From the IMG/VR virus record IMGVR_UViG_3300037153_000606: 64,000 nucleotides of DNA, one strand, 5' to 3'. The translations under genes and the position numbers were made by a program. The first letter of the stretch is position 1; each line of letters starts with the position of its first letter. Shown here one piece after another: positions 52 through 59,247 of the stretch. Source of the stretch: a virus. The notes below the pieces were generated by a model. It did no database searches. It was not told the origin of the DNA and worked only from the letters and a program-made list of their open reading frames with translations.

Positions 52-116
52 GACGTGGCTAGGCGTGGCCAGGCTAGGCGAGTCAGGGCCCGGCACGGCG
101 AGGCACGGCATGGCAG
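52..116 (+). ncRNA. Solo GGY-NN guide-like unit (12 pentamers + GGCAG end)
   Basis: GAC-GT GGC-TA GGC-GT GGC-CA GGC-TA GGC-GA GTC-AG GGC-CC GGC-AC GGC-GA GGC-AC GGC-AT GGCAG; same grammar as the 15703-17275 array. Confidence 0.6.
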
Positions 117-2677
117 GACAGGCTGGGCTGTCGCCGGTTCAGGCTTCCTGGATCGGCGACAACCCCGACGAGCCGACGTTGCACTGGCGCGCGCCGAATC
201 TGCGATACGAGGTTCACATCAAGAACTACATGCCCAGCCGGGACCTGCGTGAGGGGTACGGCGCGGTGCCGCACCAGTACGTGTCGTTGCATGAGAACGA
301 TCTGCACAACCCGCACGCGAAGCCTTCGATCCGCAGTGTCGAGAACGGCGAGCTGCGCGCCGTCGACCAGTTCGGCAACCGGCCCGGCAAGCCGCCTGCG
401 CATGTGATGCGGCACATCAACGACGCCATCGACCAGGTGCGCCAGCACGCCGACACACACGCCGACCTGTACGGCCAGCTCGCCGAGCAGCAGGACATCC
501 GTGACGACCTGGCCGCCGTGCCGCACCGGATGCAGCAGGAGGAGCGCGGCCGGGCGATGTTCGAGAACCTGCTGCGCAGCGCCGAGGAGCGTGGCGAGCA
601 CGAGGCGGCGCTCACCCCGGCGCACGAATGGGCCAGACTGTATCTGGCCGCCGGGGCGGGGACTCCAGCCACAGCCCTGGTGGCCCTCAGATCGTTGGGA
701 ATGGCCCACGAGGCCGCCCGAGGTGTATTGGACTACGCGACCTCGTCCTGGGCCGCCTGCGGCGTTCTGGTGTCCGGGGAACCGGACACCATCATCGACG
801 TCGACCCGATCGCCAAGACTGCCGTGCTCTATGACGGCCGGACGGTCGACACCGATCTGGTGCGGTATGCGGCCAGTCATCCGGAGGGCGAACACCTCCG
901 GCATCGACGGCGGCATTTCGCACCGTCCTACGCCCCGGCCTACGGGATGGCCTGGTGCCCGTGGTGTCTCGGCGACGGGTGCGAGCGGTGTGACGACAAC
1001 GGTCAGGTGCCCGCCGACTCCCAGGACGCCGCCGCCGGTGCCGATACGGGTATGGGCGGCACCGACGGCGGCACCACGGCGGCCCTGCAGGAACAACCCG
1101 ATTTCGGTGACGACCTCTCTGGCGGTGAGGAGGATTTCGTCGGTGATCCCGCCGACGGTTCGGGGAGCCAACAGGTCACCGGCATGTGGCACCAGGCCGA
1201 CTACGAGGTCGGCGGGTTGGCCGCCGCCGGTCCCGCGCCGTCGTTCCGGCGTCGCACGCCGCATTCCGAGTCGGATAATCCCGGGTCGACCGGATTCGCG
1301 ACCTCCGCCGACCCGACCAACTGGACCTCCACGGTCGCCTCGCCGTCCAATTTGACCAACTGGAACGCGTCGTTGCACACCGCCAAGCAGGGCGACGAGG
1401 TGACGCATGCCGGAGTGGCGTTGAAGGCCGCAGACACCGGCAGGGTGCTGATGATCCAAAGGTCTAACAAGGACGAGAAGGATCCGGCGCGCGGTACCTG
1501 GGAGTTCCCGGGTGGGAGCCTCGAAGACGGTGACTCCACCTCGTTGCACGGTGCCATCCGGGAGTTCGAGGAGGAGGTCGGGTCGAAGTTCCCTGAGGGT
1601 GGCCACCTGACCCACGTGCATCGCAACAAGAACTATGTGCTGCACACGGTGGTTGTGCCGGAAGAATCCTCGATCAACTTCGCGGACGGCCGGAAAACCG
1701 TCAACCCTGACGACCCGGACGGCGATGATCACGAGCAGTCGGCATGGTGGCAGATCGGCGACGCGCAGAAGAACCCGGCGTTGCGCCGCGAGGTGAAGAA
1801 AACCCCGTGGGACGAGATCAAGAAGGCGGCGAATGTGACCTCGGTCACATTGTCAGGGGGTAATGGGGTCGCCGGTACCTATAAGCCCGCAGGGCGTACA
1901 ACGGCCGAGCTGCGCAGCGACCAGGAGAAGGTCCTGGACCCGGACTGGAAGACCGGGTACACCCACGCGATCGACGACCAGCCCTATCAGCTGCCCGACT
2001 ACACGCCCGGTGAGGGCGGCTTCATGCGGGCCACTCGGTATGCCCAGGGGTACTCCGACGGGCGTGACGACCAGGGCCAGAAGTGGGGCGTCCTGCACGA
2101 CATCCCCGAACCCGCGTTGCCGTCCACCGACGGTGCCAGCGAGGACGCCGATGATATGAGTATCGGCGGCGACGTCCCGAGCGGGGCGCAGCCGTGGCAG
2201 GAGCCGGACGCCGGGTTGCCGGTGGACCGGGACGAGCCGTGGGGCTTCGAGCAGGGTTATCCACCGCAGGGCGCACACCTTGTGGACGCCGATGACACCT
2301 CCACCGCCTCCGACGACCTGTCCAACGTGCCGTCCAGCACGCCGGACATCACCGCCAACGCGGTGTTGGCGCAGTTCTGGAAGTCGGCCGGAGGCGCGGC
2401 ATTGCGCGCCGACGTGACCGAGGGCAAGAACTCCGGCCCGGCCGGTGAATCCACACCCGGCCGGGCCGATGACATCACCGACGGTGACATCGCCGCCACC
2501 GCGCGGGCGGTGTTGGCCAAGATGGGGGCCAAGGACTTCTCCTTCGCCGAGCAGCGCGAGCTGATCGACGAGGGGTTGACCAGCAACGCGCGGGCCCGCA
2601 ACTTCGACGATCTCGACCTCGCAGGCACGCATTACGCGCACATGGCCGACGAGCAGGACGAGGATCTCTGGTTGTGA
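110..2677 (+). CDS. Large multidomain protein with NUDIX hydrolase domain, probably head-associated
   Basis: Nudix box WEFPGGSLEDGDSTSLHGAIREFEEEVG; CPWCLGDGCERC Zn-finger; acidic linkers. ORF is open from 20, but 20-109 overlaps the repeat unit, so ATG 110 is preferred; start uncertain. Confidence 0.75.
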   Translation: MAGQAGLSPVQASWIGDNPDEPTLHWRAPNLRYEVHIKNYMPSRDLREGYGAVPHQYVSLHENDLHNPHAKPSIRSVENGELRAVDQFGNRPGKPPAHVMRHINDAIDQVRQHADTHADLYGQLAEQQDIRDDLAAVPHRMQQEERGRAMFENLLRSAEERGEHEAALTPAHEWARLYLAAGAGTPATALVALRSLGMAHEAARGVLDYATSSWAACGVLVSGEPDTIIDVDPIAKTAVLYDGRTVDTDLVRYAASHPEGEHLRHRRRHFAPSYAPAYGMAWCPWCLGDGCERCDDNGQVPADSQDAAAGADTGMGGTDGGTTAALQEQPDFGDDLSGGEEDFVGDPADGSGSQQVTGMWHQADYEVGGLAAAGPAPSFRRRTPHSESDNPGSTGFATSADPTNWTSTVASPSNLTNWNASLHTAKQGDEVTHAGVALKAADTGRVLMIQRSNKDEKDPARGTWEFPGGSLEDGDSTSLHGAIREFEEEVGSKFPEGGHLTHVHRNKNYVLHTVVVPEESSINFADGRKTVNPDDPDGDDHEQSAWWQIGDAQKNPALRREVKKTPWDEIKKAANVTSVTLSGGNGVAGTYKPAGRTTAELRSDQEKVLDPDWKTGYTHAIDDQPYQLPDYTPGEGGFMRATRYAQGYSDGRDDQGQKWGVLHDIPEPALPSTDGASEDADDMSIGGDVPSGAQPWQEPDAGLPVDRDEPWGFEQGYPPQGAHLVDADDTSTASDDLSNVPSSTPDITANAVLAQFWKSAGGAALRADVTEGKNSGPAGESTPGRADDITDGDIAATARAVLAKMGAKDFSFAEQRELIDEGLTSNARARNFDDLDLAGTHYAHMADEQDEDLWL

Positions 2678-8400: not shown

Positions 8401-8715
8401 GCCGCCTACACGAACACACCTGCCCCGGCGTACCGGATCATCAGTGGTGTCGTCTATTTCCGGGGCCAGGTCGGCAAGACGGATGGCACGGCGTTCGCAG
8501 CCACCTCGTTCAACCCAGTCACCGCACTACCCGCCGAGGCGCAGCCGACCCTGGCGAGCGGTGGTTACGTGATGGCGGCGATAGCCACCAGTTCGGGCTC
8601 GATCACCGCACGGCTTTACATCGGCTATTCCAATACCGCCCAGATGACCACCAACATGAGTGCCACAGGAGCGGTCTACATCGACATCGGCGGGTTCTCC
8701 TATCCACTTGGCTGA
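5494..8715 (+). CDS. Modular tail fibre / receptor-binding protein
   Basis: GTG just after upstream stop; 4 copies of GGxxGQVLxKxxxxDYNTxW-type linker; short GPQGPT collagen stretch; fibre-tip-like beta modules. Confidence 0.8.
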   Translation: MPRSLGTVNIPALASAPASPVTGDQYYDTGTKRRYIYNGTAWVTPDVLAGGTAGQVLTKVDGTDYNTQWQTISGGGGGFAVTDIADGSTSANTLVSPGIYRIQFTQLGLPSWSRWNTSNGIGFLAVYSFGSNITQMVESSIAPASGFPGGGELWMRSSGNTGSSWSDWQSINSANSNLISDFNLARGPGYYSLPGDNANGPGVPGNGMLFVDTDMSPKSAFWANTAQTWFCSAGGNAGQVWARAVTAGGVAGPWRRIDSAMLTGGSAGQVLSKVDGSDYNTQWATPATVPGFAAPTAETAFGTSSAAGSSTSVPRADHTHGNPANPLPTGGAAGQVLSKISSADYNTTWSTPLPAYRATVTSDMADQGTDPLFTRWPSQYGVILANSGGQYRLTAAASNQYTGLKTDFTNTPLVLDWLEAKVTADLAGTAPLFFFGIKDSTDGNRAGFTLSGTSVTPVDQTNYTDNHPQGTPVTITANTPVYLALAIGTDAVRYGEVNPNPANLYMYTSTDGLVWTRRYGNTAPTIAAACRIAFDVQNSGATSLFYISQINLVSVAPSTTSLDSGWHYLNAPGEPTCTYPPYDLAGNSYSPGRFRRDGAGCVWLDVMIVPPTASATAVLFTLPQGFRPAYSIFLCVSHTSGPAVIRVDPNGDVVFAYCVTGTLTWTHLGSATFMAEDAQTVNWVTPALGGSWTNLGTLGGKTCAPARYFVDAAGDIHLSGMIAGGGTGSANAPFSLPANLWPNGTDGAIINQPTCCSPGSAGAQARVDVNNGALGVVVVNSYGGGGGNAWVSLDGIVIANPNGNWSTPALINSWVAYSASYVTTQFCVNKFGIAAMRGLIKSGSGGAVAAASMSTEIAPRYTVIFLGYANAGCARLDTIYDGRITPSTYWNSGTNAFVSTVGRWWSEAEGGGSGPQGPTGPQGPSGGPVPSGGQTGFVLAKKSATDGDVQWANPVSDTGWKTLPIASGYAAYTNTPAPAYRIISGVVYFRGQVGKTDGTAFAATSFNPVTALPAEAQPTLASGGYVMAAIATSSGSITARLYIGYSNTAQMTTNMSATGAVYIDIGGFSYPLG

Positions 8716-8728
8716 GATGAGGGGCCTG

Positions 8729-8760
8729 ACTGCCTCCTCCCGGCCCTGACCGGCGAAGTA
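8729..8760 (+). promoter_or_regulatory. Putative phage late promoter, CCTG-N22-GAAGTA family
   Basis: ACTG at 8729 and GAAGTA at 8755; same spacing at seven other intergenic sites. Confidence 0.55.
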
Positions 8761-8774
8761 CGGAGGAGGCCGCC

Positions 8775-8921
8775 ATGCTGCGCAAGTACGGCACCCTGGA
8801 GGTGTTGTCGGCCGCGATCGGCCAGATCCCCCGGGGCACCCGGTCACTGGACCCCCGGTTGGGGCACCGTGCGGTGTTCTCCTTCGTGCCCCGGGCCGGG
8901 TTCCTCTACGTCCGGTCCCGG
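8775..8921 (+). pseudogene. Orphaned original 5' end of the protease/scaffold gene
   Basis: [11 protein letters not shown]; encodes ...HRAVFSFVPRAGFLYVRSR, repeated as HRAVFSFVPRPGFLYVRSR in the 9466 ORF; similarity ends where the HNH gene begins. Confidence 0.8.
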
Positions 8922-9439
8922 GTGCTGCGGTATCGCTGGCTGGCCTCTTGTCGACAGGTTCGGCAAGCCCGGACACCCTTGTACAGGTATGTGTTCTCGG
9001 CGGTGAACTCGTGACCATGCTTACAGTGCGTCTTGGCGAGATTCCAGGCTTGAACCGAGTTGCCGCGCAGTGTGTTCTCCCGCGAGGTGACCGGTCGGAC
9101 ATGGTCAGGATTGACGCAGGCCCGGTTGTCGCAGACGAAGTGGTCGAGTACTTTTCCGACCGGTACGGGTCCGTATTTCCGTTCATAGTAGAACTTGGTC
9201 GCCTTGACGGTCTTGTGTCCCTTGGCGGGGTCGTTGGTCAGTCCGTACCCGTCGGCATTGAGGTGCTTCTGCCAGATCCAGCACCCGTTGCCCGCGACGA
9301 TGTAGTCGATCTTTCGGGTGTTATGTCCGTGGACGAAGCGCATCGGTTCTCCACGCACCCAGCCGAATCTTCGGTGGGACTGTGGAGCGATCTTGGTGCG
9401 TTGTCCGCAGCCACACTCGCAGAGCCCATCACTTGCCAT
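8906..9439 (-). CDS. HNH homing endonuclease
   Basis: CECGCG N-terminus; CWIWQ..GYG..LDHFVCDNRACVNPDH..T.REN; KTHCKHGH..CRTC C-terminal domain. Confidence 0.9.
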   Translation of the reverse strand: MASDGLCECGCGQRTKIAPQSHRRFGWVRGEPMRFVHGHNTRKIDYIVAGNGCWIWQKHLNADGYGLTNDPAKGHKTVKATKFYYERKYGPVPVGKVLDHFVCDNRACVNPDHVRPVTSRENTLRGNSVQAWNLAKTHCKHGHEFTAENTYLYKGVRACRTCRQEASQRYRSTRDRT

Positions 9440-9465
9440 GTGATGAATCTTTGCGGAGGTGAGTG

Positions 9466-12400
9466 ATGTTCCGCAAGTTTGCTTCTGCTGAAGTGTTGGC
9501 CGTTGCAAAAGGTGAGTCATTGAAAAAGGATGCTCATCGAGCGGTCTTTTCATTTGTACCTCGACCTGGGTTTCTCTATGTAAGGTCTAGAAGTATATCT
9601 AGTCGCTGCAACGACAACTACGATTTTTTCGGCGCGGACGAGATCGCCAAGTCCTACCGGACCTTCATCGGCAAGCCGGTGTTCGTCAACCACAACAACT
9701 CCGACCACCGCCGGGCCCGGGGGATGGTCATCGACGCGGTCCTGCACCGGGACCGCAACGCCGACGGGTCCCCGGATTTCTGGGTCGAAGCGCTCATGGA
9801 GGTCGACGCCGAGACCTACCCGAAACTCGCCAAGTCGATCCTGTCCGGCGAGATCGACCGCACCTCGATGGGATGCGACGTCGAGTTGTCCAAGTGTTCC
9901 TACTGCGGCAACGAGGCGACCTCGCCGTTGGAGTACTGCCAGCACATTCCCGGCAAGAAGGGCAAGCGGATCTACAAGATGCTTCCCGACGGACGCCGGG
10001 AAGGACAACTCGTCTTCGAGATCTGTTCTGGTTTGTCGTTCTTCGAGAACTCACTGCTGGTGGAGCCTCCGGCAGATCCGACGGCTTATTTCCTTGGGCA
10101 GCCGGTATTGGGACCTGGTTTAGAGCATCTCAGGCAGAAAGCAGCGAATCTGCAGGCCGTTCTGGAGGAACAGCCTGCCGCGCCACGCCATGACATGCCT
10201 AGCCGAGCCTCGACAAACCAAGCCCGGCCGTTGCAGCGTACGGCAGCGGCTGGTGACGACTGGCATGTCGGGATGGACCCTGAGCGCCGCCGCAAGGCCG
10301 AGGAGGCCGCAGGCAAGCTCTGGGAGGGGTTCCACCAGATCATGGATCCGGGGTCGACGCCCGCCTCACGCGTCTCCGACCGCAACATGCGGGTGATGAA
10401 CAACCTGCAGAACCTGGGATATCAGCCGCATCACATCAAGTTCGAGGACGACGAGGACGAAGGGCATCCGTACGCCCACATCCAGGGACCCAAGGGGTGG
10501 TACGGCGTCGACTACGGCGGCCCGCACATGGAGATCCGGCACCAGGCCACCGGCAACGAGTCCCACGACTTGATCAACTTGCAGCACTACGACAAGGAGA
10601 CCCGCGAGCAACACCGGATGCCCGGGTACGGACCGCACGAGGCCGAGGCGGACCTGCACCACTGGGTACACGGCGACCCGGAGGAGACTGGCGGGAGCGC
10701 CGAGTACCTGGAGCACAACGACCCGCGCATCAAGCGGTGGATCGGCCGCCACCAGGCCGCGTTGCAGGTCGAGGCGGTCACCCAGGAGCATGCCGAGGAC
10801 TACCTCAACGAGCACCCGATCAGCCCCACACACATCCTGAGCCGGGTCGAGCAGGCCGCCTCGGACCCGGCCACCCTGCACTCCGGGATGAAGTGGTACG
10901 ACGACGCACACGGGATGGCCAAGACCATGGCCAGCCACCACGGCGTGCCGTTGCAGCACGCGGCAGGTGCACTGGGGGTCTACTCCTCCAGCTCGGCCCC
11001 GGCCCCGAACTTCCACATGGCCTCGATCGCCCTGCATGCCGGAAAGGGGATCTGGGCCCGTGAGTCCGGCGGTTCCGCCGAACACGGTTACAAGGGATCC
11101 CCGATGGCGTCCGAGGCCGATGCCAAGAAGGTGGACCGGATCTTCTCCGGAGAGCACTACAACGACGTCATCGGTTCGTCCAAGACCAAGCACTACGCCC
11201 GGCTGATCCACGACCCGTCCAACGATCACGACGTGGTCATCGACCGGCACGCGGTGGCGGCGGCGATCGGTCATTACGGCAACTCCGGCGAGCCGTACAA
11301 CAACGTGGCCGGGCCGATGGAGAACGTCAACGCCAAGGGGGCGGGCAAGCTCTACGACCGGTTCTCCGACGCCTACCGGCAGGCCACCCACCACCTGAAC
11401 ACGTCGCCCGAGTACAGCCCTCTGCGCAAGCACATGGTCCGGTCCGGACTGCTCGGCGAGGGCGAGAAGATCAAGCCGCACCAGGTGCAGGCGCTGGCCT
11501 GGATCGCGCAGAAGGACATCAGCGACCAGCATGCCCGCAACGACATGACCAACGCCAACCAGCGCGCCATCGACGACTGGCAGAACCACTACACCAGCCG
11601 GTACGGGGTGGACGCGCACCACCCGGTGTCCGGCAAGGGGTTCTACGGCCAGGAGCCGACCCCGGCGAAAGCGGCGAGCATGCAGCGCCTCTCCTACGGG
11701 GAAACGAAAGCCCCTCAGGACGTCGACACGCTGCGCGACGAGCGGTGCGCGATCTGCGGTAACGACACGGCCTACGACGGGCGGGAGTGCCTGGTCTGCG
11801 GGTACATCGCGCCGCCCAAGGCGTTGGGTGACCCGGACGTCGACAAGGCCAAGCATCTGGACGAGTTGAAGCAGTCGGTCGACGACGCGCTCTCCGAGGT
11901 CGACCCGTCCCGGCCGGGTGCGGACTTCGACCCCGGCGACCTGGACGAGATCCAGGCCGAGATCGGTGAGGCGGGCACCCCGCCGATGGTGTGCCCGAAC
12001 TGCGACTCGGTCTTCGACCCGGCCGAGGAAGAGATCAATGCCGGTGATACCTGCCCGGACTGCGGTCAGGCCGAGGTGGCGGAGGCCGAGCCGGAGGAGG
12101 GCGAGGGAGACGCCCAGGATGTGGCCGAGGACGAGGCCACCGAGGGGCTGCCCGGCGAACAGGCCGAGGACCAGGACGTGCCCAGCGGGGACGAGGACGA
12201 AGACGCCGACGAGGACGAGGAAGACGAGGACGGGGAACCAGACGACGAAGACGAGGAGGACGAGGAAGACAAGCGCAGACGTCGTCCTGTTGCCAGCCGG
12301 TCCGCGACCTCGAAGTACCGACCACCATCGAAGGGGTACGACATGCAGAAGGCACTGGCGGCACTGGCCGAGCTGCAGGCCCTGGTCGAGCACCAGCAGC

Positions 12401-13263
12401 ACGAGAACCTGAAGCTGCAGCGGCGGCTCGCCGCCAAGGACAGCCAGATCCAGCGGTTGACCTACGGTCTGCAGGCGATCGCCCAGCATCTCGGCCCCGA
12501 CGTGGACACCCTGGTGCGTTCGGCCATGCTGCGCAAGCGGGCCGACGAGCAGAACCCGGCCCAGCCGGTGCCCGAGCCCGCGCCGGAACCGCCGACCGAG
12601 TCCACCGTGCAGGCCGAGACGCCGGAGGCGTTCGCCGACGTCACCGCGCCGGGCATGGTGCCGGGGTCCACCCAGGACGTGGCCGCCGACGCCGTCTCCA
12701 CCGCGTACACGCCCGGTCAAGACGTGGGCGCGCCGCCACTGCGCCAGTTGGTCGACGTGACCCGGCCCATCGACGGCACCCAGGGACCGCGCCCGTTAAG
12801 CGAGACCAAGACCAACGTGGACGTGCGGGTGGGCAACCCGATGAACCCGCAGACCGCGTTCCCGCTCGGCGGTGACTTCGCCCAGGCGCAGCGCACCGGT
12901 TCGGTCAACGGCGGCAGCGGGGACCTGAAGACGATGGCCTCGATCCGGCTGGCCAGGCTGCGCATCGCGGCCAACATCGAGGACGGCGAGGACCTGGCCA
13001 TCGCGCAGCGCATCGCCGCCGAGCTGGACGTCCCGGCGATCAACGCCGAGATCGCCACGCTGTCCAACGTGATCAAGGCGAGTGCGGCGCGCCGCCAGCA
13101 GCAGCCACCGCCGCGCGGAGTGCCGCCGCGCCCGGCTCCGGGGGTGGGCCGCACCGTTCCGCCGATGACCCGTTCGGCCGGGTTGCGCACCGCATCGCGG
13201 CCGGACGCCGAGGACGCCGACCTGGCGCTGGTTTTCCTCTCCGAGCAAGCCCTGTCCAGCTGA
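9466..13263 (+). CDS. Capsid maturation protease / scaffold polyprotein with inserted domains
   Basis: GGAGGT RBS (GTG 9463 or ATG 9466); FIGKPVFVNH, TSMGC, FFENSLLVEPPADP protease-like motifs; Zn fingers, acidic tract, coiled coil; lies upstream of decoration and capsid genes. Confidence 0.75.
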   Translation: MFRKFASAEVLAVAKGESLKKDAHRAVFSFVPRPGFLYVRSRSISSRCNDNYDFFGADEIAKSYRTFIGKPVFVNHNNSDHRRARGMVIDAVLHRDRNADGSPDFWVEALMEVDAETYPKLAKSILSGEIDRTSMGCDVELSKCSYCGNEATSPLEYCQHIPGKKGKRIYKMLPDGRREGQLVFEICSGLSFFENSLLVEPPADPTAYFLGQPVLGPGLEHLRQKAANLQAVLEEQPAAPRHDMPSRASTNQARPLQRTAAAGDDWHVGMDPERRRKAEEAAGKLWEGFHQIMDPGSTPASRVSDRNMRVMNNLQNLGYQPHHIKFEDDEDEGHPYAHIQGPKGWYGVDYGGPHMEIRHQATGNESHDLINLQHYDKETREQHRMPGYGPHEAEADLHHWVHGDPEETGGSAEYLEHNDPRIKRWIGRHQAALQVEAVTQEHAEDYLNEHPISPTHILSRVEQAASDPATLHSGMKWYDDAHGMAKTMASHHGVPLQHAAGALGVYSSSSAPAPNFHMASIALHAGKGIWARESGGSAEHGYKGSPMASEADAKKVDRIFSGEHYNDVIGSSKTKHYARLIHDPSNDHDVVIDRHAVAAAIGHYGNSGEPYNNVAGPMENVNAKGAGKLYDRFSDAYRQATHHLNTSPEYSPLRKHMVRSGLLGEGEKIKPHQVQALAWIAQKDISDQHARNDMTNANQRAIDDWQNHYTSRYGVDAHHPVSGKGFYGQEPTPAKAASMQRLSYGETKAPQDVDTLRDERCAICGNDTAYDGRECLVCGYIAPPKALGDPDVDKAKHLDELKQSVDDALSEVDPSRPGADFDPGDLDEIQAEIGEAGTPPMVCPNCDSVFDPAEEEINAGDTCPDCGQAEVAEAEPEEGEGDAQDVAEDEATEGLPGEQAEDQDVPSGDEDEDADEDEEDEDGEPDDEDEEDEEDKRRRRPVASRSATSKYRPPSKGYDMQKALAALAELQALVEHQQHENLKLQRRLAAKDSQIQRLTYGLQAIAQHLGPDVDTLVRSAMLRKRADEQNPAQPVPEPAPEPPTESTVQAETPEAFADVTAPGMVPGSTQDVAADAVSTAYTPGQDVGAPPLRQLVDVTRPIDGTQGPRPLSETKTNVDVRVGNPMNPQTAFPLGGDFAQAQRTGSVNGGSGDLKTMASIRLARLRIAANIEDGEDLAIAQRIAAELDVPAINAEIATLSNVIKASAARRQQQPPPRGVPPRPAPGVGRTVPPMTRSAGLRTASRPDAEDADLALVFLSEQALSS

Positions 13264-13873: not shown

Positions 13874-14848
13874 ATGACCCAGCTGATGGTCCCGCAGGGC
13901 GTCCAGGTCCCGATGAAGTCGGACGACTACGTCGCCCAGATCATGGCCAGGCACCAGGGCAAGACAGCCACCCACAACCAGAAGCTGCAGGCCATCGCGC
14001 GGGTGCTCTCCGACGAGGTCTCCGGCTTCAAGCGGCTCGGTGTCGGCATGATCGGCCCGATCCAGCTCAAGCTGCGTTATCAGGGCATCACCCGCAACGT
14101 GCTGGTCGAGGACCCGGTCACGCCGGGCACCCCGGTCGAGTACGACGTGTGGGACGACCTGGGCCAGGCCTTCATCCTGTCCGGCAACGAGGGCGAAGTC
14201 GACATCACGATCTTCGAGGGCAAGCGGGTGCGGGTGGACTTCTACCGCATCGCGTCGCAGGCCCAGATCCGCAAGGAAGACCTGATGTACCTGCGCATCA
14301 ACGCCGTCGAGCAGGCGCAGGACGAGACCAAGCAGTCCATCCTCAAGCAGGAGGACTCCCGGCTGATCATCGTGTTGCAGGCGGCGCTGACCAACTACGC
14401 GACCCGGCCGGACCACGTGATCACCCCGAACCACACGGTGTCGGAGACCTCGGGCTACTACACCCCGGCCTCGTTCTATCAGGCGGTCGCGCAGACCGAC
14501 ATGCACGAGCTGGTGTCCAGCCGCATGCTGGTCAACCCGATGGACTACCGGGACTTCTTCAAGTGGGACATCAACACCACCGGTTGGGCGTTCAAGGACC
14601 GCGTGGTGGCCGGTGAGACGATCACCAGCTTCGGCGAGTTCCAGGTGCAGCGCTCGATCATGGTGCCGCAAAAGTCGCTCTACCTGCTGCCCGAGCCGAA
14701 CTTCCTCGGCGTCTTCCCGGTCCTGTACAGCTTGGACGTGGAGGAGAACCACCAGGTGGCGCGCTTCCTGCGCGGTTGGGTGTTCGACGAAATGGTTTGC
14801 CAATTGGTTCTCAACCCGAGAGGCATAGCGGCTGTTACCAAGCCGTGA
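13874..14848 (+). CDS. Major capsid protein
   Basis: 324 aa; AGGAG RBS; strongly GC3-biased codons; C-terminal LVLNPRGI; synteny; followed by terminator. Confidence 0.8.
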   Translation: MTQLMVPQGVQVPMKSDDYVAQIMARHQGKTATHNQKLQAIARVLSDEVSGFKRLGVGMIGPIQLKLRYQGITRNVLVEDPVTPGTPVEYDVWDDLGQAFILSGNEGEVDITIFEGKRVRVDFYRIASQAQIRKEDLMYLRINAVEQAQDETKQSILKQEDSRLIIVLQAALTNYATRPDHVITPNHTVSETSGYYTPASFYQAVAQTDMHELVSSRMLVNPMDYRDFFKWDINTTGWAFKDRVVAGETITSFGEFQVQRSIMVPQKSLYLLPEPNFLGVFPVLYSLDVEENHQVARFLRGWVFDEMVCQLVLNPRGIAAVTKP

Positions 14849-14907: not shown

Positions 14908-15738
14908 ATGCCTCGGCCGCCGTCTCCAACGACTTCGAAGACGTGTCAACGTGACGGTTGCGATAACCGATTCGAAGTCACCCAAGCCAAAGCTCAGAGG
15001 GATCGTCGATTTTGTTCGAAAGATTGCTCGAACAAAGCCACCGCGCTAATCCGTGGCGCTTCGTATCGAGCCAGTCATGGGTATAAGCCGCCAGTTTGTC
15101 CATGTGGTCGTTCTATCCAACCGAGACCGGGCCAGCGGTACGTCTATTCGAAGAAATATTGCGACATGGAGTGTCGTGCTCGATTTAGCCCGAGGCGACA
15201 ACCCAATCCTGAAAAGTGGGGTTCATACACGTGTCGCGTGTGTGGCACTGAATTCACCCGCCGGAAGAACTCTCGTAATGCCAAGATCTATTGCAGCCTT
15301 GCGTGTGCCAACAAGGAGACCAAGAAGAAGCATCACATCGTGTTGCGCGATGACGATGTTGTGTTCGACAGTGCCTGGGAGGCGTTCTTTTACGGCGCGT
15401 GCAAGATCGCGAAGATCCCGATCGAACGGTTCGACCGAGATCATGGTGTTGCCTACGACCCAGAATACCTGGATCGGTGGTACGCGCCAGACTTCTGGTT
15501 GCCCGACGTCCAGGCATGGGTCGGTCGCACCGGCGTTGCGATCGAAATCAAAGGTGTTGAAGACGACCGCGACGAAACCCGGTGGACCGCCTTCCGGTCG
15601 ACGGGAGTCGACCTGGTGGTGATGGACCGGTACCGGATGGAGAACCTGTCTGCACACTCGTTGTCCGACATCCTGCGAGTCGCCACGATGAGGGACAATC
15701 CCGCCTTGCCATGCCAAGCCGCGACACGCCTAGCCTAA
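14908..15738 (+). CDS. Free-standing endonuclease: Cys-rich zinc-finger repeats + PD-(D/E)XK domain
   Basis: Repeated CxxC..(F/Y)CS..C units; FDSAWEAFF..YAPDFWLP..IEIKG; lower-GC 5' half; 3' end runs into the array. Confidence 0.75.
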   Translation: MPRPPSPTTSKTCQRDGCDNRFEVTQAKAQRDRRFCSKDCSNKATALIRGASYRASHGYKPPVCPCGRSIQPRPGQRYVYSKKYCDMECRARFSPRRQPNPEKWGSYTCRVCGTEFTRRKNSRNAKIYCSLACANKETKKKHHIVLRDDDVVFDSAWEAFFYGACKIAKIPIERFDRDHGVAYDPEYLDRWYAPDFWLPDVQAWVGRTGVAIEIKGVEDDRDETRWTAFRSTGVDLVVMDRYRMENLSAHSLSDILRVATMRDNPALPCQAATRLA

Positions 15739-17275
15739 CCTTGCCACGCCGAACCAGGACTGCCGCGCCCTGCCAAGGGTTGCCCCGCCCAACCCAACCG
15801 GGCCTCGCCTGGCACGCCGAGACGAACCCGGCCAAGTACCGCCGTGCCATGCCGCACCTTGGCAGCCTCACCGAGCCATGCCGAGCCATGCCCATCCACG
15901 CCGTGCCCTGACCACCATGCCGTGCCTGCCGAGCCACGCCAAGCCTTGACCCGCCCTGACGGGCCGAGCCTTGCCCTGACTGCCGAACCACGCCAAGCCA
16001 CACCAAGACCCGACCTGCCAAGCCGAGCCGTGCCGAGCCATGCCTGCCCCGCCGCACCACGCCGCACCATGCCGCTGCCCTACCGTGCCGCACCCTGCCC
16101 GCCTTGCCCAGCCAAGACGTGCCACTCCAGGCCAAACCCTGCCCGCCTTGCCTCACCTCGCCGTGGCCCGCCCAACCGCACCGAGCCCCGCCAAGCCTGC
16201 GTCGCCCCGCCGTGACCCGTCACGCCGGGCCCAACCAAACCACGCCTGCCCGACCGAGCCCTGCGTTGCCCTGCCTGGACCAACCGCGCCTCGCCTGCCA
16301 TGCCCCACCTGGCCAGACCATGCCCAGCCGTGCCAGCCTGCCAAACCGAGCCCTACCGAGCCGTACCCAGACGAGCCAAGCCACACCGTGCCCGCCCAAC
16401 CGGGCCGCACCGGGACTCGCCGAGCCCTACCTTGCCTGCCTTGCCGAGCCGAGCCTCGCCAAGCATTGCCATGCCCAGCCGTGCCTGCCGAACCGAGCCC
16501 TACCGGGCCGAGCGGTGCCCTGCCTGGCCTAGCCGCGCCGCGACTGCCCTGCCTTGCCTCACCCAGCCTTGCCGAGCCGCACCAAGCCTTGCCGCGCCTG
16601 CCGTACCTCGCCCAGCCGAGCCCGGACGGACCTAGCCCCACCGCACGGTGCCCTGCCGAGCCATGACTGCCCTGCCCTGCCGCACCGAACCGAGACGTGC
16701 CGGACCACCCGGGCCAAGCCACGACTGCCGTGCCACACCCTGCCGACCATGCCCAACCCAGCCATGCCGAGGCTGCCCCGCCGTACCGGACCCGGCCGCA
16801 CCAAACCAAGCCATGCCTGCCGCGACCTGCGATGCCCTGCGGTACCAGGACATGCCGTGCCTGCCGAGCCGGGACCCGCCCCGCCATGACTAGCCATGAC
16901 CGGACTTGCCCCACCGAGCCTGCCCAGCCACGCCTTGCCCAGACTTGCCAGGCCTTGCCGTGCGCTGCCAGCCGAGCCAAGCCTTGGCTGCCTCGCCACG
17001 CCGAGCCCTGCCGAGCCCACCTAGCCTTGCCCTGCCACGGCTGCCCTGACATGACCCGCCGTGCGATGCCGAACCGGGCCGGACCATGCCTGCCTACCAG
17101 GCCACGCCCCGACTCGTCCCGCCTTGCCTTGCCTGCCGGGCCGAGCCTTGACTAGCCATGCCTAGCCACGCCATGCCGAGGCTGCCCAGCCATACTGCGC
17201 CGTGCCGAGACTTGCCCCGCGACGACCCGACATGCCTGCCCGACCTCGCCACGCCCACCTAGCCGTGACTGCCAC
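15703..17275 (-). repeat. GGY-NN pentamer array, ~29 units; putative guide-RNA array (VIPR-like)
   Basis: Plus strand reads RCC-NN in 5-nt register, broken about every 8-13 pentamers by a 4-nt step (gcct/gact/ggct/gccc); downstream of and co-oriented with a RAMP-like gene. Confidence 0.85.
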
Positions 17276-17282
17276 GAAGCGA

Positions 17283-17320
17283 ACCGCCGGGATCATGCCC
17301 CACCACATGATCCCGGCGGT
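17283..17320 (-). promoter_or_regulatory. Perfect 15-bp hairpin in the array leader
   Basis: ACCGCCGGGATCATG - 8 nt loop - CATGATCCCGGCGGT. Confidence 0.7.
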
Positions 17321-17363
17321 CCAAAGCCACCCATTCCCTCCCGCGAGACGAGTGGCCGGTCTG

Positions 17364-17819
17364 TCAGCTCGCCTGATGCTCGCCGTTCAGGTCGTCGAGC
17401 ACCATCCGGGTGAACTCATCCAAGTGACGGTACTGAGCTGCTAGCGCACGCCAGCGCCGTTCCGCCTCCTGCAGGATCAACCTCCGCTTGAGCGGGTCGA
17501 GCGCGATGTCCTCGACCGGTTCATAGTTCGGTTGGTGCGCCGTAGGGCGCGACACCGCGATGTACTTGCGGACCCGTTTCTCCTCGTCCGATGCATCCCG
17601 GTAGACCACCTTCACCGAGGTGATCAGCTTGTGGGCCTGGGTGAGCCGGTGTTTCTCCCCGGCCACCCGGTTGTCCCACTCGAAACGCGAGTACAGCGGG
17701 TGTTTCCTGCCGAGCGACTGGACGTCGGCCAACACCGCCCGAGGAGTCAGCTCGCCCTGTCGTTGGCGAACCTCCTCAAGCTGGCGAGCCAACTCCTCGT
17801 GAGCGGTGAAGGCGGTCAT
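17364..17819 (-). CDS. Accessory protein of the RAMP/array operon, function unknown
   Basis: 151 aa; starts 3 nt after RAMP-like gene stop; LTPRAVL..HPLYSRFEWDN..AGEKHRL.QA..LI. Confidence 0.8.
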   Translation of the reverse strand: MTAFTAHEELARQLEEVRQRQGELTPRAVLADVQSLGRKHPLYSRFEWDNRVAGEKHRLTQAHKLITSVKVVYRDASDEEKRVRKYIAVSRPTAHQPNYEPVEDIALDPLKRRLILQEAERRWRALAAQYRHLDEFTRMVLDDLNGEHQAS

Positions 17820-17822
17820 GGC

Positions 17823-18452
17823 TTAGTTGATGACCGTGATCTCGCGGGCCTGGTCGATCTCGAACGTCCCGTACTCGCCGTTCTTCTCCGGACGCCACTC
17901 ACCGACACCGACGGTGAGACCGGCGGCGGAGATGATCGAGAGCACCGAGTCGCGGGTGATCGCGGACTTGACGTACTGCACGGTCAGCTCGGAGGTCCAG
18001 TCCGGGAACTCGGCGCGGTAGCGCAGGTCGGTGCCACTGATGCCAACCGTCACCATGTCCTCGCGCATCTTCGGCTCGCCGACGATCGGGAAGAGCGCCT
18101 GGTTGCAGTGTTCGCTCATCACGCCACGGAAGAACAGGAACTGGCGCAGCTCGGTCATCCGGACCGACTTGCCGTACAGCCGGGCGGCGGACACCGTCGC
18201 GGCCTTGAACGCGACGGACGGGAAGCCGTAGCCGTCGGCGGTGCGGTACAGCGAGGACTCGAACTCGGCCTCGGGGTCGCGGGGTTCCTTGATGGTCTTG
18301 CGGCCCTGCTGGGTGTCCAGCATCTGGCGCTTGGCCTTCTCCGACCAGTTGTGCACGATCAGCGGCATGGTGCCGACGACCGGCACGAGCAACGTCTCGA
18401 CGTCGATCTTGGTGATGTCCAGTTGGGCTGGAGCGGCGGCTGCTGCGGGCAT
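17823..18452 (-). CDS. Stand-alone Cas7/RAMP-like RNA-binding protein (Vipr-like)
   Basis: 209 aa from ATG 18452 with AGGAGG RBS; V.GTMPLIVH first strand, FPSVAFKAA helix, C-terminal glycine loop GVGEWRPEKNGEYGTF; no other cas genes in the window. Confidence 0.75.
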   Translation of the reverse strand: MPAAAAAPAQLDITKIDVETLLVPVVGTMPLIVHNWSEKAKRQMLDTQQGRKTIKEPRDPEAEFESSLYRTADGYGFPSVAFKAATVSAARLYGKSVRMTELRQFLFFRGVMSEHCNQALFPIVGEPKMREDMVTVGISGTDLRYRAEFPDWTSELTVQYVKSAITRDSVLSIISAAGLTVGVGEWRPEKNGEYGTFEIDQAREITVIN

Positions 18453-18583: not shown

Positions 18584-19546
18584 GTGGATGCCGCCACACT
18601 GGTCAAGGCGATGCCGGGGCTCAGCCTCACCCGGGCCAGCCAGCTGGTCAATGGGGCCAATGCCGCGATGTCCATCGGGCAGATCAACACCGTCAAGCGG
18701 TGTGCGATGTTCCTGGCGCAGATCGGCACCGAGTCCGCTTCGTTGCGTTACCAGCAAGAGATCCAGCCGCCGCCGGGCGCGCAGTACCCGCCCTACATCG
18801 GGCGCACCTTCATCCAGGTCACCTGGCGGGACAACTATTCCGCGTTCGGCAAGTGGTGCAAGGCCAAGAACCTGCTCGCGGACGCGAATCTGTTCGTCAA
18901 CAAGCCCGCCACCCTGGCCGCCGACCAGTGGGCCTGGCTCGGGCCGGTGTGGTACTGGACGGTGGCCCGGCCCAATCTGAACGCGATGGCGGACGCGGGT
19001 GACATCGTCGGGTGCACCCGGGCCATCAACGGCGGGCTGAACGGGCTGGAGGACCGCACCCAGCGTTACCACCGCTGCCTGAGCCTCGGCACCGCGATCC
19101 TGCCGACCACCGCCACGCCCCAGCCGGAGGACGACATGCCCACCCAGCTCTACCTCACCGCATCCTCGAAGAAGCCGACCAAGGTGCCCGCTGGCGGGAA
19201 ATGGACCCCGGTGCTGTGGGACGGCTGGTCCCCGAAGGGCATCTCCGGCGGTGTCGGCGTGATACTCGGCAAGACGACCAAGTTGTTCAGCATGTCGGCG
19301 TGGCTCTACACCACCGGGCTGACCCCGGATGACAACATCTACTTCAAGGTGCAGACGCTGGCCACGAAGGACAACAAGCCGCTGGCCACTTTCCCTTACT
19401 CGGAGCAGCGTGGCACCACCGGCGGGTCCAACTTCAACTACAGCCAGGTCGGTTCGGTCAACCCCGGCACCAACCTGCGGCTGCTGGTCTCGGCCACCCG
19501 CGAATGCACCGTCACCCAGGCCTGGTGGCGAATCTTTGTTTGGTGA
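18584..19546 (+). CDS. Endolysin, GH19 (chitinase-like) catalytic domain
   Basis: MFLAQIGTES, YIGRTFIQVTWRDNY, TRAINGGLNGLEDR..RY motifs. Confidence 0.9.
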   Translation: MDAATLVKAMPGLSLTRASQLVNGANAAMSIGQINTVKRCAMFLAQIGTESASLRYQQEIQPPPGAQYPPYIGRTFIQVTWRDNYSAFGKWCKAKNLLADANLFVNKPATLAADQWAWLGPVWYWTVARPNLNAMADAGDIVGCTRAINGGLNGLEDRTQRYHRCLSLGTAILPTTATPQPEDDMPTQLYLTASSKKPTKVPAGGKWTPVLWDGWSPKGISGGVGVILGKTTKLFSMSAWLYTTGLTPDDNIYFKVQTLATKDNKPLATFPYSEQRGTTGGSNFNYSQVGSVNPGTNLRLLVSATRECTVTQAWWRIFVW

Positions 19547-57298: not shown

Positions 57299-57622
57299 AT
57301 GTCGACGCTTGACTATGCCGCCGCGCGTGCCGTGGCGCGGGCGCGACTCCTCGAACGCGCGGTGCACGACTCGGGCCCCTGGCAGATCGAGATCGCCGGG
57401 ATCCGCGAGGACGCGGTCAAGGTCCGTACCCCGCACCGGGTGCTGTTCCTGGCCAATTTCTACTCCGTTCCCGACCCGGACGCCACGGTGGCGTGGCTGC
57501 TCTGCGATGGGCAGTTCCTGTCCTCCAAGGACATCCGGCTCGGCGACTCCGGGCCGTTCTCCATCGAGTGGTCCATCATCGGCCCGGATTCGCTGGAGCC
57601 CTCGTCACCGGCAGTCGCATGA
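57299..57622 (+). CDS. Hypothetical protein
   Basis: GAGGAGG RBS; ATGA overlap with helicase. Confidence 0.65.
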   Translation: MSTLDYAAARAVARARLLERAVHDSGPWQIEIAGIREDAVKVRTPHRVLFLANFYSVPDPDATVAWLLCDGQFLSSKDIRLGDSGPFSIEWSIIGPDSLEPSSPAVA

Positions 57623-59193
57623 CCGCATCACCGGCCGCCGCCGCCCGGCCGGTGATGGACAACGGGCGGCTCTTCCACTCCCCACTCGGCCTATTCGGCT
57701 TCCAGGCCGAGTGCGTGGCACGCGCCTACTACCAGGACGGGCTGCTCGCGGTCTGCGATACCGGGCTCGGCAAGACGATCATCTCGATGGCGCTGGCCGC
57801 GCAGCTGTTCCAGGACGACCAGGTCGACCTCGTCATCCACGTGGCGCAGAAGAACAAGATCGACAAGAGCGAGTTCCCGGCCGACTGGGCCCGGTTCAGC
57901 TCGCTGCGCACGCACGTCTACCACGGCACCAACCGGGGCAGGCGACTGGCCAAGGCGGGCACCCCGGACGTGCTGATCAGCACCTACGAGACGCTGCGCG
58001 AGGACCTGGTCATCTTCTCCGGCCGGTCCGGGCGGGCCCGCACCGACGGCATGCTGGTCGAGGTGCTCAAGCTGCGCACCGCACGGGTGCTGTGGATCTT
58101 CGACGAGATCAGCAAGCTGGGCAACCGGTCCTCCAAGCTGTACCGCGCCTTCGAGTACGTGCTCACCCAGCAGCGCAACCACGGCCTGCCGCCCCGGGTG
58201 CTGGGTCTCTCGGCTACCCCGATGTCCACCGACTACGAGCAGCCGTTCAACATCGGCCGGATCGTCTGGCCCGCCCGGATGCCGAGCGTCACCTACTTCG
58301 AGGACACCTACACCTACGGCCGCGACGACCACGGGCGGCTGCTGTACAAGCGCGGTGCCCGGGAGTGGTTCGCCGCCCAGTTCGAGCCGCTGATCTACCG
58401 CAAGCGGCGCACCGACCCGGACGTGGTCGACCAGATGCCCCGGCTGATGGAGAAGGTGCTCCCGGTCGACCTGCACCCGGAGCACCGTGCGCTCTACGAG
58501 GCCGTGGGACGCCTGTACGGCCCCGATCCCACCCCGAGGCAGCAGGACCTGCTGCTGATGGCCCAGCGGCTCACTGCGGGCCATCCCCGGGCACTGCTGC
58601 GCAGCGGCTCGGAACTGGCCAAGGCGGTGGTGGAGACGCTCGGCGCAGACCGGCTGCGAGCCGTCCCGTCGGCCAAGACGCTACGGCTGATCGAGCTGCT
58701 GTCCACACTGAAGGCGCAGGGCGACCCGGCGTTGGTGTTCTGCGCCTTCGCCGAGACCGTGCTGCCCGAGGTGGCCGCCGATCTGGTGTCCGCCGACCTG
58801 CGGGTGGGTATCTACACCGGAGGGCAGTCGTCCAGCTCGAACGAGGCCGCCAAGGCCGCGTTCAAGGCCGGAGAGCTGGACGTACTGCTGTCCTCGGACG
58901 CTGCGGCTACTGGGCTGAACTTGCCTCAGGCGGCCTACGTGATCGAATACGATGCCGCGTCCACGTTCGCCCTGCGAACACAGCGGTTCGGACGCGGGTT
59001 GCGTATCGACTCGGCCAAGTCCCATGTCTATGGCTTGACTATTGTGGCCCGCCGGACCGTCGAGGTCGGCCTGCTGCAGAGCATGCTCAAACGCAACGAC
59101 CTACAAGACGAGTTGCACGGCGATCGTGGTGCAGAAGGACATCTCGACGCCAAAGTGCGCCGAGATGTCTCCTTCGAGGCGTTGCGGAATTAG
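57619..59193 (+). CDS. SNF2-like SF2 helicase
   Basis: CDTGLGKT (I), FDEIS (II), SATP (III), GLNLPQAAYVIEYD (V), QRFGRGLRI (VI). Confidence 0.9.
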   Translation: MTASPAAAARPVMDNGRLFHSPLGLFGFQAECVARAYYQDGLLAVCDTGLGKTIISMALAAQLFQDDQVDLVIHVAQKNKIDKSEFPADWARFSSLRTHVYHGTNRGRRLAKAGTPDVLISTYETLREDLVIFSGRSGRARTDGMLVEVLKLRTARVLWIFDEISKLGNRSSKLYRAFEYVLTQQRNHGLPPRVLGLSATPMSTDYEQPFNIGRIVWPARMPSVTYFEDTYTYGRDDHGRLLYKRGAREWFAAQFEPLIYRKRRTDPDVVDQMPRLMEKVLPVDLHPEHRALYEAVGRLYGPDPTPRQQDLLLMAQRLTAGHPRALLRSGSELAKAVVETLGADRLRAVPSAKTLRLIELLSTLKAQGDPALVFCAFAETVLPEVAADLVSADLRVGIYTGGQSSSSNEAAKAAFKAGELDVLLSSDAAATGLNLPQAAYVIEYDAASTFALRTQRFGRGLRIDSAKSHVYGLTIVARRTVEVGLLQSMLKRNDLQDELHGDRGAEGHLDAKVRRDVSFEALRN

Positions 59194-59247
59194 CCTCGCC
59201 CTGCCAAGCCATGCCCCGCTGAGCCGCGCCGGGCCTAGCCATGCCGT
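59193..59247 (-). ncRNA. Solo GGY-NN guide-like unit (11 pentamers)
   Basis: gcctc gccct gccaa gccat gcccc gctga gccgc gccgg gccta gccat gccgt, directly at the helicase stop. Confidence 0.75.

Follow-up and report, generated by a model that had tools for sequence, protein, structure and literature searches.

What is encoded by a tract of degenerate pentamers lying behind two small genes in a viral genome (IMG/VR record IMGVR_UViG_3300037153_000606), and upon what might it act? The cassette was analysed within a window, i.e., the whole stretch of 64,000 nt under study. A preliminary description placed on the minus strand, in order, a 209-aa gene, a 151-aa gene, a leader and an array, and this order and its coordinates are confirmed on the sequence. 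We are highly confident that the cassette is an RNA-guided system of the VIPR (Viral Interference Programmable Repeat) class with a staggered array, borne by a large GC-rich actinobacterial phage. The class itself is already known: the same description noted that the locus might belong to VIPR, and VIPR is indeed described in bioRxiv 10.64898/2026.04.26.720920. The features of the locus, together with two vrRNA-like units found elsewhere in the window, are as follows:

17823..18452 (18452 to 17823), minus strand: vipr, coding for a 209-aa minimal RAMP (Cas7-like) protein
17364..17819 (17819 to 17364), minus strand: vap, coding for a 151-aa accessory protein
17281..17360, minus strand: putative leader with two stable hairpins, between the vap stop and the first pentamers
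15696..17259, minus strand: staggered vrRNA array of ~320 GGYNN pentamers in 39 segments with 4-nt steps
14908-15738: Zn-finger/HNH-like endonuclease gene, between the capsid gene and the array
55..118, plus strand: 12-pentamer vrRNA-like unit at the edge of the window, with GGCAG at its end
59191..59245, minus strand: solitary vrRNA-like unit of 11 pentamers

The cassette and its two proteins

The ATG of vipr is preceded by AGGAGG, and vap starts 3 nt past the vipr stop. The cassette is flanked by a capsid gene, the HNH-like gene and an endolysin, and virion proteins are the largest other ORFs of the window; its earlier placement between capsid and lysin genes holds, with the amendment that the Zn-finger/HNH-like gene intervenes on the capsid side. 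No cas1, cas2, cas5, cas6 or large-subunit gene was seen near the cassette, and neither a sigma-70 promoter consensus nor that of an intrinsic terminator was found for it. This is the minimal form of such loci, which are mostly viral or proviral: vipr and vap in a virus, with neither a CRISPR array nor a cas operon seen near them. It falls outside class 1 CRISPR-Cas, its units being of 5 nt, repeats of 25-40 nt being absent and the operon comprising two small genes; likewise, a search of Rfam returned no CRISPR direct-repeat family.

Vipr is a small stand-alone RAMP homologous to the described Vipr proteins. The RAMP hallmarks earlier read from its sequence are supported by a match across the G-loop to the solved SUSP1 Vipr protein (PDB 36pp_D; E=8.4e-6 with phmmer and 2.5e-7 with a profile), wherein residues 133-199 are aligned and the G-loop GVGEWRP corresponds to GVGDWRP of SUSP1. 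As only the C-terminal 60 residues show the similarity, the mechanism may differ in detail in the present clade; moreover, among the published types I-VII, which are told apart by place in the Vipr tree and by vap class, so weak and C-terminal a resemblance to the type II SUSP1 Vipr suggests, as far as sequence comparison goes, a type other than II. The closest solved folds are those of the RNA-targeting Csm3/Cmr4, and the closest Vipr proteins in named genomes (~58-68% identical) are from Kribbellaceae, Micromonosporaceae, Microbacterium, Streptomyces, and Naumannella. Vap displays a winged-helix-like N-terminal domain followed by a long C-terminal helix. Neither Vipr nor Vap has a match in Pfam.

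The region between vap and the array is strongly structured, with a fold energy of -62.4 kcal/mol (z -5.3) and an equally good fold in 0 of 200 shuffles. The preliminary description was right about a structured leader, which actually contains two hairpins in place of the single 15-bp one proposed, the stem of the second being 18 bp in the RNA fold. This segment, for which we infer a leader function, has neither a U-tract nor a terminator consensus, and no Rfam family, hammerhead included, was found in it or in and around the array.

Array anatomy and related loci

Sharing the strand of vap and starting 105 nt beyond it, the array extends from 17259 to 15696, its 1,564 nt agreeing with the earlier estimate of ~1.57 kb. 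Its constant triplets (GGC 204, GGT 57, GTC 31, CGC 8) and the information at pentamer positions 1-5 (1.67, 1.30, 1.19, 0.12, and 0.05 bits) bear out the alternation of a constant GGY, with variants GTC and CGC, and a variable NN. Guide RNAs of the VIPR class (vrRNAs) are defined by at least 4, and typically 9-16, tandem YNNGG/GGYNN repeats near vipr with GGY conserved and NN hypervariable, a description that suits the array. In-phase runs of at least four GGY hold 179 pentamers, as against a mean of 0.3 and a maximum of 12 in 200 shuffles. Segmentation was by a dynamic-programming parse, which yields ~320 pentamers in 39 segments, ~27 of these with at least 7 pentamers; division of the array by 4-nt GGC-A steps, as first described, stands, and the count of ~29 units given with it is replaced by these figures. 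Thirty-seven of the 38 inter-segment steps are of 4 nt and the remaining one is of 6 nt; the consensus junction between segments is GGCAG|G, and 23 of the 39 segments end in GGCAG. Such a 4-nt step equals a 1-nt overlap of successive guides, which is the defining arrangement of a staggered array, where each guide starts as the previous one ends.

The autocorrelation of the array is 0.53 at lag 5, with a peak that drifts to 5k-1 because of the repeated 4-nt steps, of which this drift is a signature. Power at exactly period 5 is weak across the whole array because the same steps scramble the phase, making local autocorrelation and the parse the valid measures. The GGY share is 82%, as compared with 87-96% in relatives, and there are several segments of 1-5 pentamers; given that the array is more degenerate than its relatives, some of its units may be decaying.

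The association of the three components recurs widely. The vap gene follows vipr in 114 of ~150 related loci, and when homologue neighborhoods were searched for 5-nt-period arrays, as had been recommended, ~70 among the first 83 loci proved to have a same-strand GGYNN array with the GGCAG junction adjoining vipr, with essentially none on the opposite strand. The junction and units of 9-14 pentamers recur in 15 related arrays, including those of phages UmaThurman, Ecliptus, and Saal; the array-bearing loci include cultured Gordonia and Mycobacterium phages, and one relative (L007) has an array of 68 segments. Gordonia phages Pipp and ODay have a vipr homologue, the array scan having covered loci other than these two. 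The GGCAG-junction arrays of the homologue loci correspond to the "staggered array" of 10.64898/2026.04.26.720920 (its Fig. S18, "staggered vrRNA arrays"), a preprint from which experimental confirmation of this form is absent. In the cultured Gordonia and Mycobacterium phages, present annotations either omit the arrays or wrongly make proteins of them.

Turning to the two outlying units, that at 55..118 probably closes a second array whose remainder lies upstream, beyond the window. The unit at 59191..59245 falls mostly between two genes of the plus strand and overlaps the last ~30 nt of ORF 57309-59222; when both were compared with ~3 Mb of sequence, no target was found for the latter.

Guides and their target motifs

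Targets were decoded by the published 1-nt-skip rule, (xNN)n. Guides 21, 33, 19, and 17+18 have in-frame targets with the skipped base at the codon wobble position; chance would give ~0-2 matches. As the skip falls on the wobble base, what each guide addresses is effectively a conserved motif of a protein:

16667..16725, minus strand: guide units 17 and 18 taken together across their junction, motif I of SNF2 helicases (LLLADEVGxGKT)
16598..16667, minus strand: guide unit 19, the SHERGYPALLDI region of 520-590-aa ThiF/E1-family proteins
16485..16544, minus strand: guide unit 21, the DELGDVLWYAA motif of MazG-like pyrophosphohydrolase genes
15980..16044, minus strand: guide unit 33, the region of the catalytic site, R[ED]TKTKPLKDVDI, in CD-NTase genes of CBASS

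Guide 33 has 18 exact matches (24/24) in metagenome contigs, all in frame in CD-NTase-like ORFs. Four of the products, scored with PADLOC, match PDLC00809 at 1e-105 to 1e-120, and each of the three target neighborhoods examined is a type III CBASS operon that includes TRIP13, HORMA, and effector genes. With up to 3 mismatches, the same guide has two matches in 401 Actinomycetes genomes, both in cyclases, versus 0 for the control. Guide 21 has 38 exact matches to its 22 specified bases in IMG/VR, all in frame in ORFs of 51-192 aa with the wobble base skipped. For guides 17+18, whose pattern was picked after the decoded motif had been seen and with the junction codon masked, the exact matches, over 18 specified bases, number at least 119, and among those listed all are in frame (median ORF 635 aa). 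Guide 19 has three matches with 2-3 mismatches of 26 in 301 genomes (control 0), all in frame in homologous proteins. Its ThiF/E1 target adjoins capP-like and IetS-like genes. PADLOC detects a weak E1-E2 similarity in this protein, limited to a 50-residue E1 stretch at 3e-15; its identification as a canonical Cap2 was rejected, there being no match at E 1e-15 or better.

A further five full-length guides yielded no clear target. The pattern of unit 27, which decodes to a TIR-like RDLFLCHAS, was discarded, its two identical matches in 28-aa ORFs of viral contigs being at chance level. Among viral sequences there were no exact matches for unit 38 (decoding to a ComEC/MBL-like LPHHGS) or for units 24, 12, and 39, and unit 39 also had none in 251 genomes. 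Self-matches in the window are at the level of the shuffled control. Searches with all guides against ~1.2 Mb of loci, followed by ~0.1 Mb from CBASS and ThiF loci, returned only the matches already known, and in these sequences the guides do not converge on one element. The apparent novelty lies in the matches of some guides to defence genes of the host, the CBASS cyclases among them; the VIPR preprints consulted make no mention of defence-gene targets, and the two searched for CBASS lack the term.

Proposed mechanism and comparison with known systems

Based on homology with the characterised SUSP1 system, we propose that vipr, vap, and the array are co-transcribed from the minus strand, and that Vipr protomers would polymerise on the transcript in a 5-nt register, each holding a GGY and exposing the next NN. 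The preliminary description had likewise envisaged one subunit per GGY presenting NN, and this arrangement is the one reported in the VIPR cryo-EM paper (10.64898/2026.04.26.720927). Since the 4-nt GGCAG|G step breaks the register, the precursor would yield ~30 separate guide RNPs of ~8-14 pentamers each, probably by processing at the GGCAG|G junctions. Each RNP, assisted by the winged-helix-like Vap, would bind dsDNA of sequence (xNN)n, with every third base skipped, and repress transcription; binding to DNA rather than RNA, silencing, and the biological role are all points that we infer.

That the tract might instead be a meaningless GC-rich tandem repeat, or a Gly/Trp/Arg-rich coding region beside an unrelated 209-aa gene, is a notion encouraged by the long ORFs that can be drawn through it on both strands. 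It is refuted by the lack of codon periodicity (period-3 power of 0.43 versus 8-29 in the flanking genes), by 4-nt steps that break every reading frame, by the confinement of information to three of five pentamer positions, by the tight same-strand linkage of array and vipr at ~70 loci in distant hosts, and by the exact guide-to-target matches. With a VIPR system as the preferred reading, the nucleic acid bound has to be considered. Each of the four guides with a resolved target is antisense to the coding strand, and could pair with mRNA in the manner of type III Cas7 complexes, for which the kinship with the Csm3/Cmr4 folds also speaks; but an orientation shared by all four guides is not significant (p ~0.12), either strand of dsDNA can hold the site bound by the characterised VIPR, and a 1-nt skip on single-stranded RNA is without report, making action on mRNA by the RNPs of this clade quite improbable.

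The same VIPR machinery could also serve mainly in counter-defence, silencing host immune genes (the CBASS cyclase, possibly SNF2-type and E1-type defence proteins) beyond or instead of those of rival phages and satellites. This is consistent with the perfect agreement of guide 33 at 24 of 24 NN positions in CD-NTase-like ORFs of 18 contigs, the complete type III CBASS operons at the three loci whose neighbors were examined, the identity of both matches in Actinomycetes genomes as cyclases, the capP-like and IetS-like genes beside the ThiF/E1 target, and the absence of CBASS from the two VIPR preprints searched for the term. On the other hand, prophages and other mobile elements often carry CBASS operons, so that the conflict may still be between elements, and transcriptional repression of a defence protein that is already expressed may be too slow for lytic infection. 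MazG-like genes are typical of phages, SNF2 motif I, being universal, reveals little of what the guide is meant to hit, and only 4 of ~30 guides are resolved, with no other guide matching the CBASS operons. We regard a mainly counter-defensive role as a genuine possibility, though short of an even chance. A stronger form, which we judge rather unlikely as a joint claim, is that the array is a multiplexed panel of ~30 motif-level silencers, each matched through the skipped wobble base to a protein family of its own, at a conserved catalytic or nucleotide-binding motif, with part of the panel aimed at host anti-phage immunity (the type III CBASS CD-NTase, perhaps E1-like and SNF2-type defence proteins). 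If true, it would amount to RNA-guided broad-spectrum counter-defence, with a scope beyond that of an arm directed at a single rival satellite or prophage.

VIPR joined the known RNA-guided classes only very recently (2026), and study has been limited to enterobacterial and Pseudomonas systems; the present locus and its relatives show a staggered, tail-less array form to be widespread in actinobacterial phages. Cultured, tractable carriers include Gordonia phages UmaThurman and Ecliptus and many Mycobacterium smegmatis phages, e.g., Saal; Pipp and ODay are also tractable, and are known here from the vipr homologue alone. With arrays in cultured phages, it can be tested directly by experiment how guide boundaries are set by a 1-nt register shift. 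The target matches suggest that phages can aim one guide at a whole protein family, including the CBASS cyclase, via a conserved motif; if confirmed, RNA-guided silencing of host immunity would join the known anti-defence repertoire.

The nearest known systems are those comprised of Vipr, Vap, and vrRNA (bioRxiv 10.64898/2026.04.26.720920, 10.64898/2026.04.26.720927, and 10.64898/2026.10.15.759431). The present locus shares with them a ~200-aa minimal RAMP bearing a G-loop, a phage-borne operon of the two genes vipr and vap, guides built from 9-16 GGY/NN pentamers, the 1-nt overlap of successive guides, 1-nt-skip targets with the skip at the codon wobble, the absence of self-targets, and solitary vrRNAs elsewhere in the genome. 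Unlike the characterised systems of E. coli and Pseudomonas, its host group is Actinobacteria; it lacks the conserved 3' tail or pseudoknot after each guide, having the GGCAG|G junction instead; and its array is of 39 segments (68 in L007) versus 4 vrRNAs in SUSP1. Further, whereas the guides of the characterised systems converge on one satellite or prophage, each resolved guide here matches a different conserved protein family, including the CBASS cyclase. The Cas7 backbone of class 1 CRISPR-Cas (Csm3/Cmr4/Cas7 on crRNA) has a 6-nt step as against 5 nt here, where two of five guide bases pair and a repeat-spacer array is absent; unlike those systems, the present one is phage-borne, with guides encoded in the genome and without a known acquisition module. 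Phage guide RNAs and mini-arrays, e.g., phage CRISPR arrays directed against host islands or rivals, are likewise virus-carried sets of programmable guides. They differ in effector and code from the present system, which uses Vipr and gapped pairing, and in its targets, which are conserved protein motifs rather than unique protospacers.

Cassette layout and array structure

The window derives from a large tailed phage (G+C ~66%), in which the cassette follows the order head protein gene, Zn-finger/HNH-like gene, array/leader/vap/vipr (minus strand) and endolysin gene, the remaining large ORFs scored being virion or lysis proteins. The anatomy proposed in the preliminary description, viz., a 209-aa gene, a 151-aa gene, a leader and a GGY/NN array, is borne out by the ORF coordinates and a parse into pentamers.

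Features of the cassette and its flanks
18452->17823, minus: vipr, 209-aa ORF, AGGAGG upstream of the start
17819->17364, minus: vap, 151-aa ORF, starting 3 nt past the vipr stop
Between vap and array, minus: leader of ~85 nt with two strong hairpins (fold -62.4 kcal/mol, z -5.3)
17259->15696, minus: repeat array of 1,564 nt (pentamer parse)
13874-14848, flank of the cassette: major head protein gene (phrog_2522)
14908-15738, plus: Zn-finger/HNH-like endonuclease gene (phrog_1271, 2e-15)
18584-19546, other flank of the cassette: endolysin gene

The 3' end of the plus-strand Zn-finger/HNH-like gene enters the distal end of the minus-strand array by ~40 nt, and the two are thus convergent and overlapping. 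Elsewhere, the plus-strand ORF 9463-13263 (1,266 aa) has at its N-terminus a region resembling head-maturation proteases (phrog_18299, phrog_2774), and also contains extended acidic tracts of low complexity and Cys-rich motifs.

The array is real and far above chance: in-phase GGY runs of at least four cover 179 pentamers against a mean of 0.3 in shuffles. Its autocorrelation peaks at lag 5 (0.53) and shifts to 5k-1 with distance, as expected from repeated 4-nt steps. A dynamic-programming parse yields ~320 pentamers in 39 segments, ~27 of which hold 7-14 pentamers, while some of the short ones look like indels within longer guides. The constant triplets are GGC (204), GGT (57), GTC (31) and CGC (8), and information falls across pentamer positions 1 to 5 (1.67, 1.30, 1.19, 0.12 and 0.05 bits). 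Steps between segments measure 4 nt in 37 of 38 cases, and GGCAG ends 23 of the 39 segments, its final G doubling as the opening G of the following unit. Codon periodicity is absent (0.43 vs 8-29 in neighbouring genes), so that ORFs drawable through the array are artefacts.

Two vrRNA-like units occur away from vipr. The window opens with a GGYNN unit of 12 pentamers (55-118, plus) that ends in GGCAG and probably closes a second array, also on the plus strand, lying upstream of base 1; as this unit overlaps the nominal 5' end of ORF 2-2677, the true start of that ORF is likely further downstream. A solitary 11-pentamer unit (59191-59245, minus) is mostly intergenic, sitting between two plus-strand genes and reaching into the 3' end of ORF 57309-59222; no target for it turned up among the sequences searched. 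It is reminiscent of the 'solo vrRNAs' described in a later paper, the third VIPR preprint.

Vipr, Vap and their relatives

The 209-aa Vipr has no match in Pfam but matches phrog_4652. By itself, its sequence recovers PDB 36pp chain D ("SUSP1 Vipr protein") with E 8.4e-6, and a 21-sequence profile does so with E 2.5e-7, the alignment comprising the C-terminal strands and the glycine-rich loop (GVGEWRP vs GVGDWRP). Its AlphaFold2 model (pLDDT 83) has only Cas7-family RAMPs as top PDB matches in Foldseek, namely Csm3, type VII Cas7 and Cmr4 (probability 1.0, E about 1e-5), which, together with the 36pp match, upholds the RAMP identity initially read from the sequence. Given that the similarity to the Vipr of SUSP1, a characterised type II system, is weak and C-terminal only, the alignment suggests a different VIPR type here. 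The 151-aa Vap matches phrog_15946, and its model (pLDDT 92) displays a helix-helix-helix-wing domain with a 40-residue terminal helix.

At E <=1e-3 the Vipr family comprises 3,656 cluster representatives (50% identity), and homologues were found in 34 GenBank phage records (27 Mycobacterium, 5 Gordonia, 1 Pseudomonas and 1 cyanophage), 432 IMG/VR stretches and 67 bacterial-genome loci, the closest of the latter in Actinobacteria. The preliminary description had pointed to homologue neighbourhoods as a place to look for such arrays: same-strand GGYNN runs lie directly up- or downstream of vipr in ~70 of the first 83 loci examined, with essentially none on the opposite strand. A vap homologue directly follows vipr in 114 of ~150 loci, and pairwise checks agree with this linkage. 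Fifteen related arrays parse alike, with 9-14-pentamer units, 4-nt steps and, in the great majority, the GGCAG junction. Array size is smallest in temperate phages of Gordonia and Mycobacterium, at 4 units, and reaches 68 units in the closest long relative, locus L007 (IMGVR_UViG_3300036832_001295; Vipr 69% identical), whose 2.8-kb staggered array (7446-10258) is the largest examined and is accompanied by a second array of 338 nt. The window array is among the largest and somewhat more degenerate than most, with a GGY share of 82% vs 87-96% in most relatives and 79-82% in two.

In Gordonia phage UmaThurman (NC_031249) the array (L002:4617-4912) falls in the 'hypothetical protein' CDS gp40, whose 108 aa are almost wholly array, and in Mycobacterium phage Saal (L003:3598-3844) it is overlapped by the 5' part of another such CDS, gp51; both look like mis-annotated vrRNA arrays.

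Guide targets and their possible purpose

Targets were sought on both strands with every GGY replaced by one wildcard, as in the published rule. Self-targets in the window did not rise above shuffled controls. The 22-base gapped pattern of unit 21 has 38 exact IMG/VR matches (~0.01 expected by chance), every one of which falls in frame on the DELGDVLWYAA motif in small MazG-like proteins. Unit 33 was searched without bias in 401 Actinomycetes genomes (<=3 mismatches), giving two matches vs none for the reversed control, both at one shared motif in oligonucleotide cyclases of CBASS (Pfam SMODS; PADLOC PDLC00809, 1e-109 and 1e-121). Among metagenome contigs, its 24-base pattern is matched exactly 18 times, on each occasion in frame at R[ED]TKTKPLKDVDI, adjoining the GS...DxD catalytic residues. 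The three loci examined hold complete type III CBASS operons, comprising either TRIP13, two HORMA proteins, cyclase and a 4TM effector, or HORMA, cyclase and a SAVED-endonuclease. Unit 19 has three matches in 301 genomes (2-3 mismatches/26; none for the control), all at SHERGYPALLDI of 520-590-aa ThiF/E1 proteins whose system affiliation is uncertain. In one genome (G052; L333:4313-11983) the ThiF/E1 gene adjoins capP-like and IetS-like (subtilase) genes, which may constitute an uncharacterised defence island.

Read through their junction, units 17 and 18 (16667-16725, minus) decode as LLLADEVGxGKT, i.e., SNF2 motif I, and their 18-base pattern, in which the junction codon is masked, has at least 119 exact matches; those listed are all in frame in large ORFs. 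This evidence counts for less, since the pattern was picked after the motif was seen. The motif runs continuously across the 4-nt junction with the junction codon as sole mismatch; either certain 4-nt steps represent indels within a guide, or one target can be tiled by adjacent guides. At all four targets the vrRNA runs antisense to the coding strand. Since targets generally fail to match the terminal GGCAG (e.g., target CG vs guide AG), this pentamer seems, from the alignments, to be a structural junction and not guide sequence. Units 38, 24, 12 and 39 have no exact match in viral sequences, unit 27 (TIR-like decode) has chance-level matches only, and the other guides have none in the same CBASS or MazG contigs.

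In published VIPR cases the guides point to a single satellite or prophage; here, each resolved guide addresses a different conserved protein family. This is compatible with counter-defence, the CBASS cyclase being a bona fide anti-phage enzyme, although silencing a defence already expressed may be too slow in a lytic cycle. It is equally compatible with attack on competing mobile elements, in which CBASS, MazG and SNF2 genes are frequent.

Proposed mechanism and comparison with VIPR systems

What is directly observed comprises the parts, their conservation, the RAMP fold, the homology to Vipr and guide-target matches that follow the published code. As for their operation, we propose that vipr, vap and the array form one transcription unit, in which the leader hairpins would separate or stabilise the mRNA and guide precursor. 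Vipr filaments would build up in a 5-nt register and stop where the 4-nt step shifts it, letting host nucleases trim the RNA at GGCAG|G. The resulting RNPs would each bind a gapped dsDNA site and block transcription, assisted by the winged-helix-like Vap. Such DNA-level silencing in this clade is somewhat less certain than VIPR membership.

That membership is very probable, as the cassette's features are the defining ones of the class, and the initial suspicion of a VIPR system was correct. The class was published in preprints in 2026 (bioRxiv 10.64898/2026.04.26.720920, 10.64898/2026.04.26.720927). The published Vipr, discovered by structure search, is a minimal RAMP, mostly phage-borne and usually with one vap partner; its vrRNAs have 9-16 YNNGG repeats with conserved GGY and hypervariable NN, and target dsDNA with a one-nucleotide skip usually at the codon wobble, resulting in transcriptional silencing. 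By cryo-EM, a helical filament of Vipr protomers sequesters each GGY and presents NN (10.64898/2026.04.26.720927), in agreement with the earlier guess of one subunit per GGY. Another paper recovers VIPR arrays via period-5 entropy patterns. CBASS goes unmentioned in the two VIPR preprints searched for that term and in the VIPR passages of a third paper.

The window adds a conserved GGCAG junction, a link to cultured actinophages whose arrays stand unannotated, and one guide's match to type III CBASS cyclases. [quoted passage not shown] In the staggered form, successive vrRNAs have 1 nt in common, exactly the 4-nt step seen here. The class is already described, and the window holds its staggered-array form in an actinobacterial phage.
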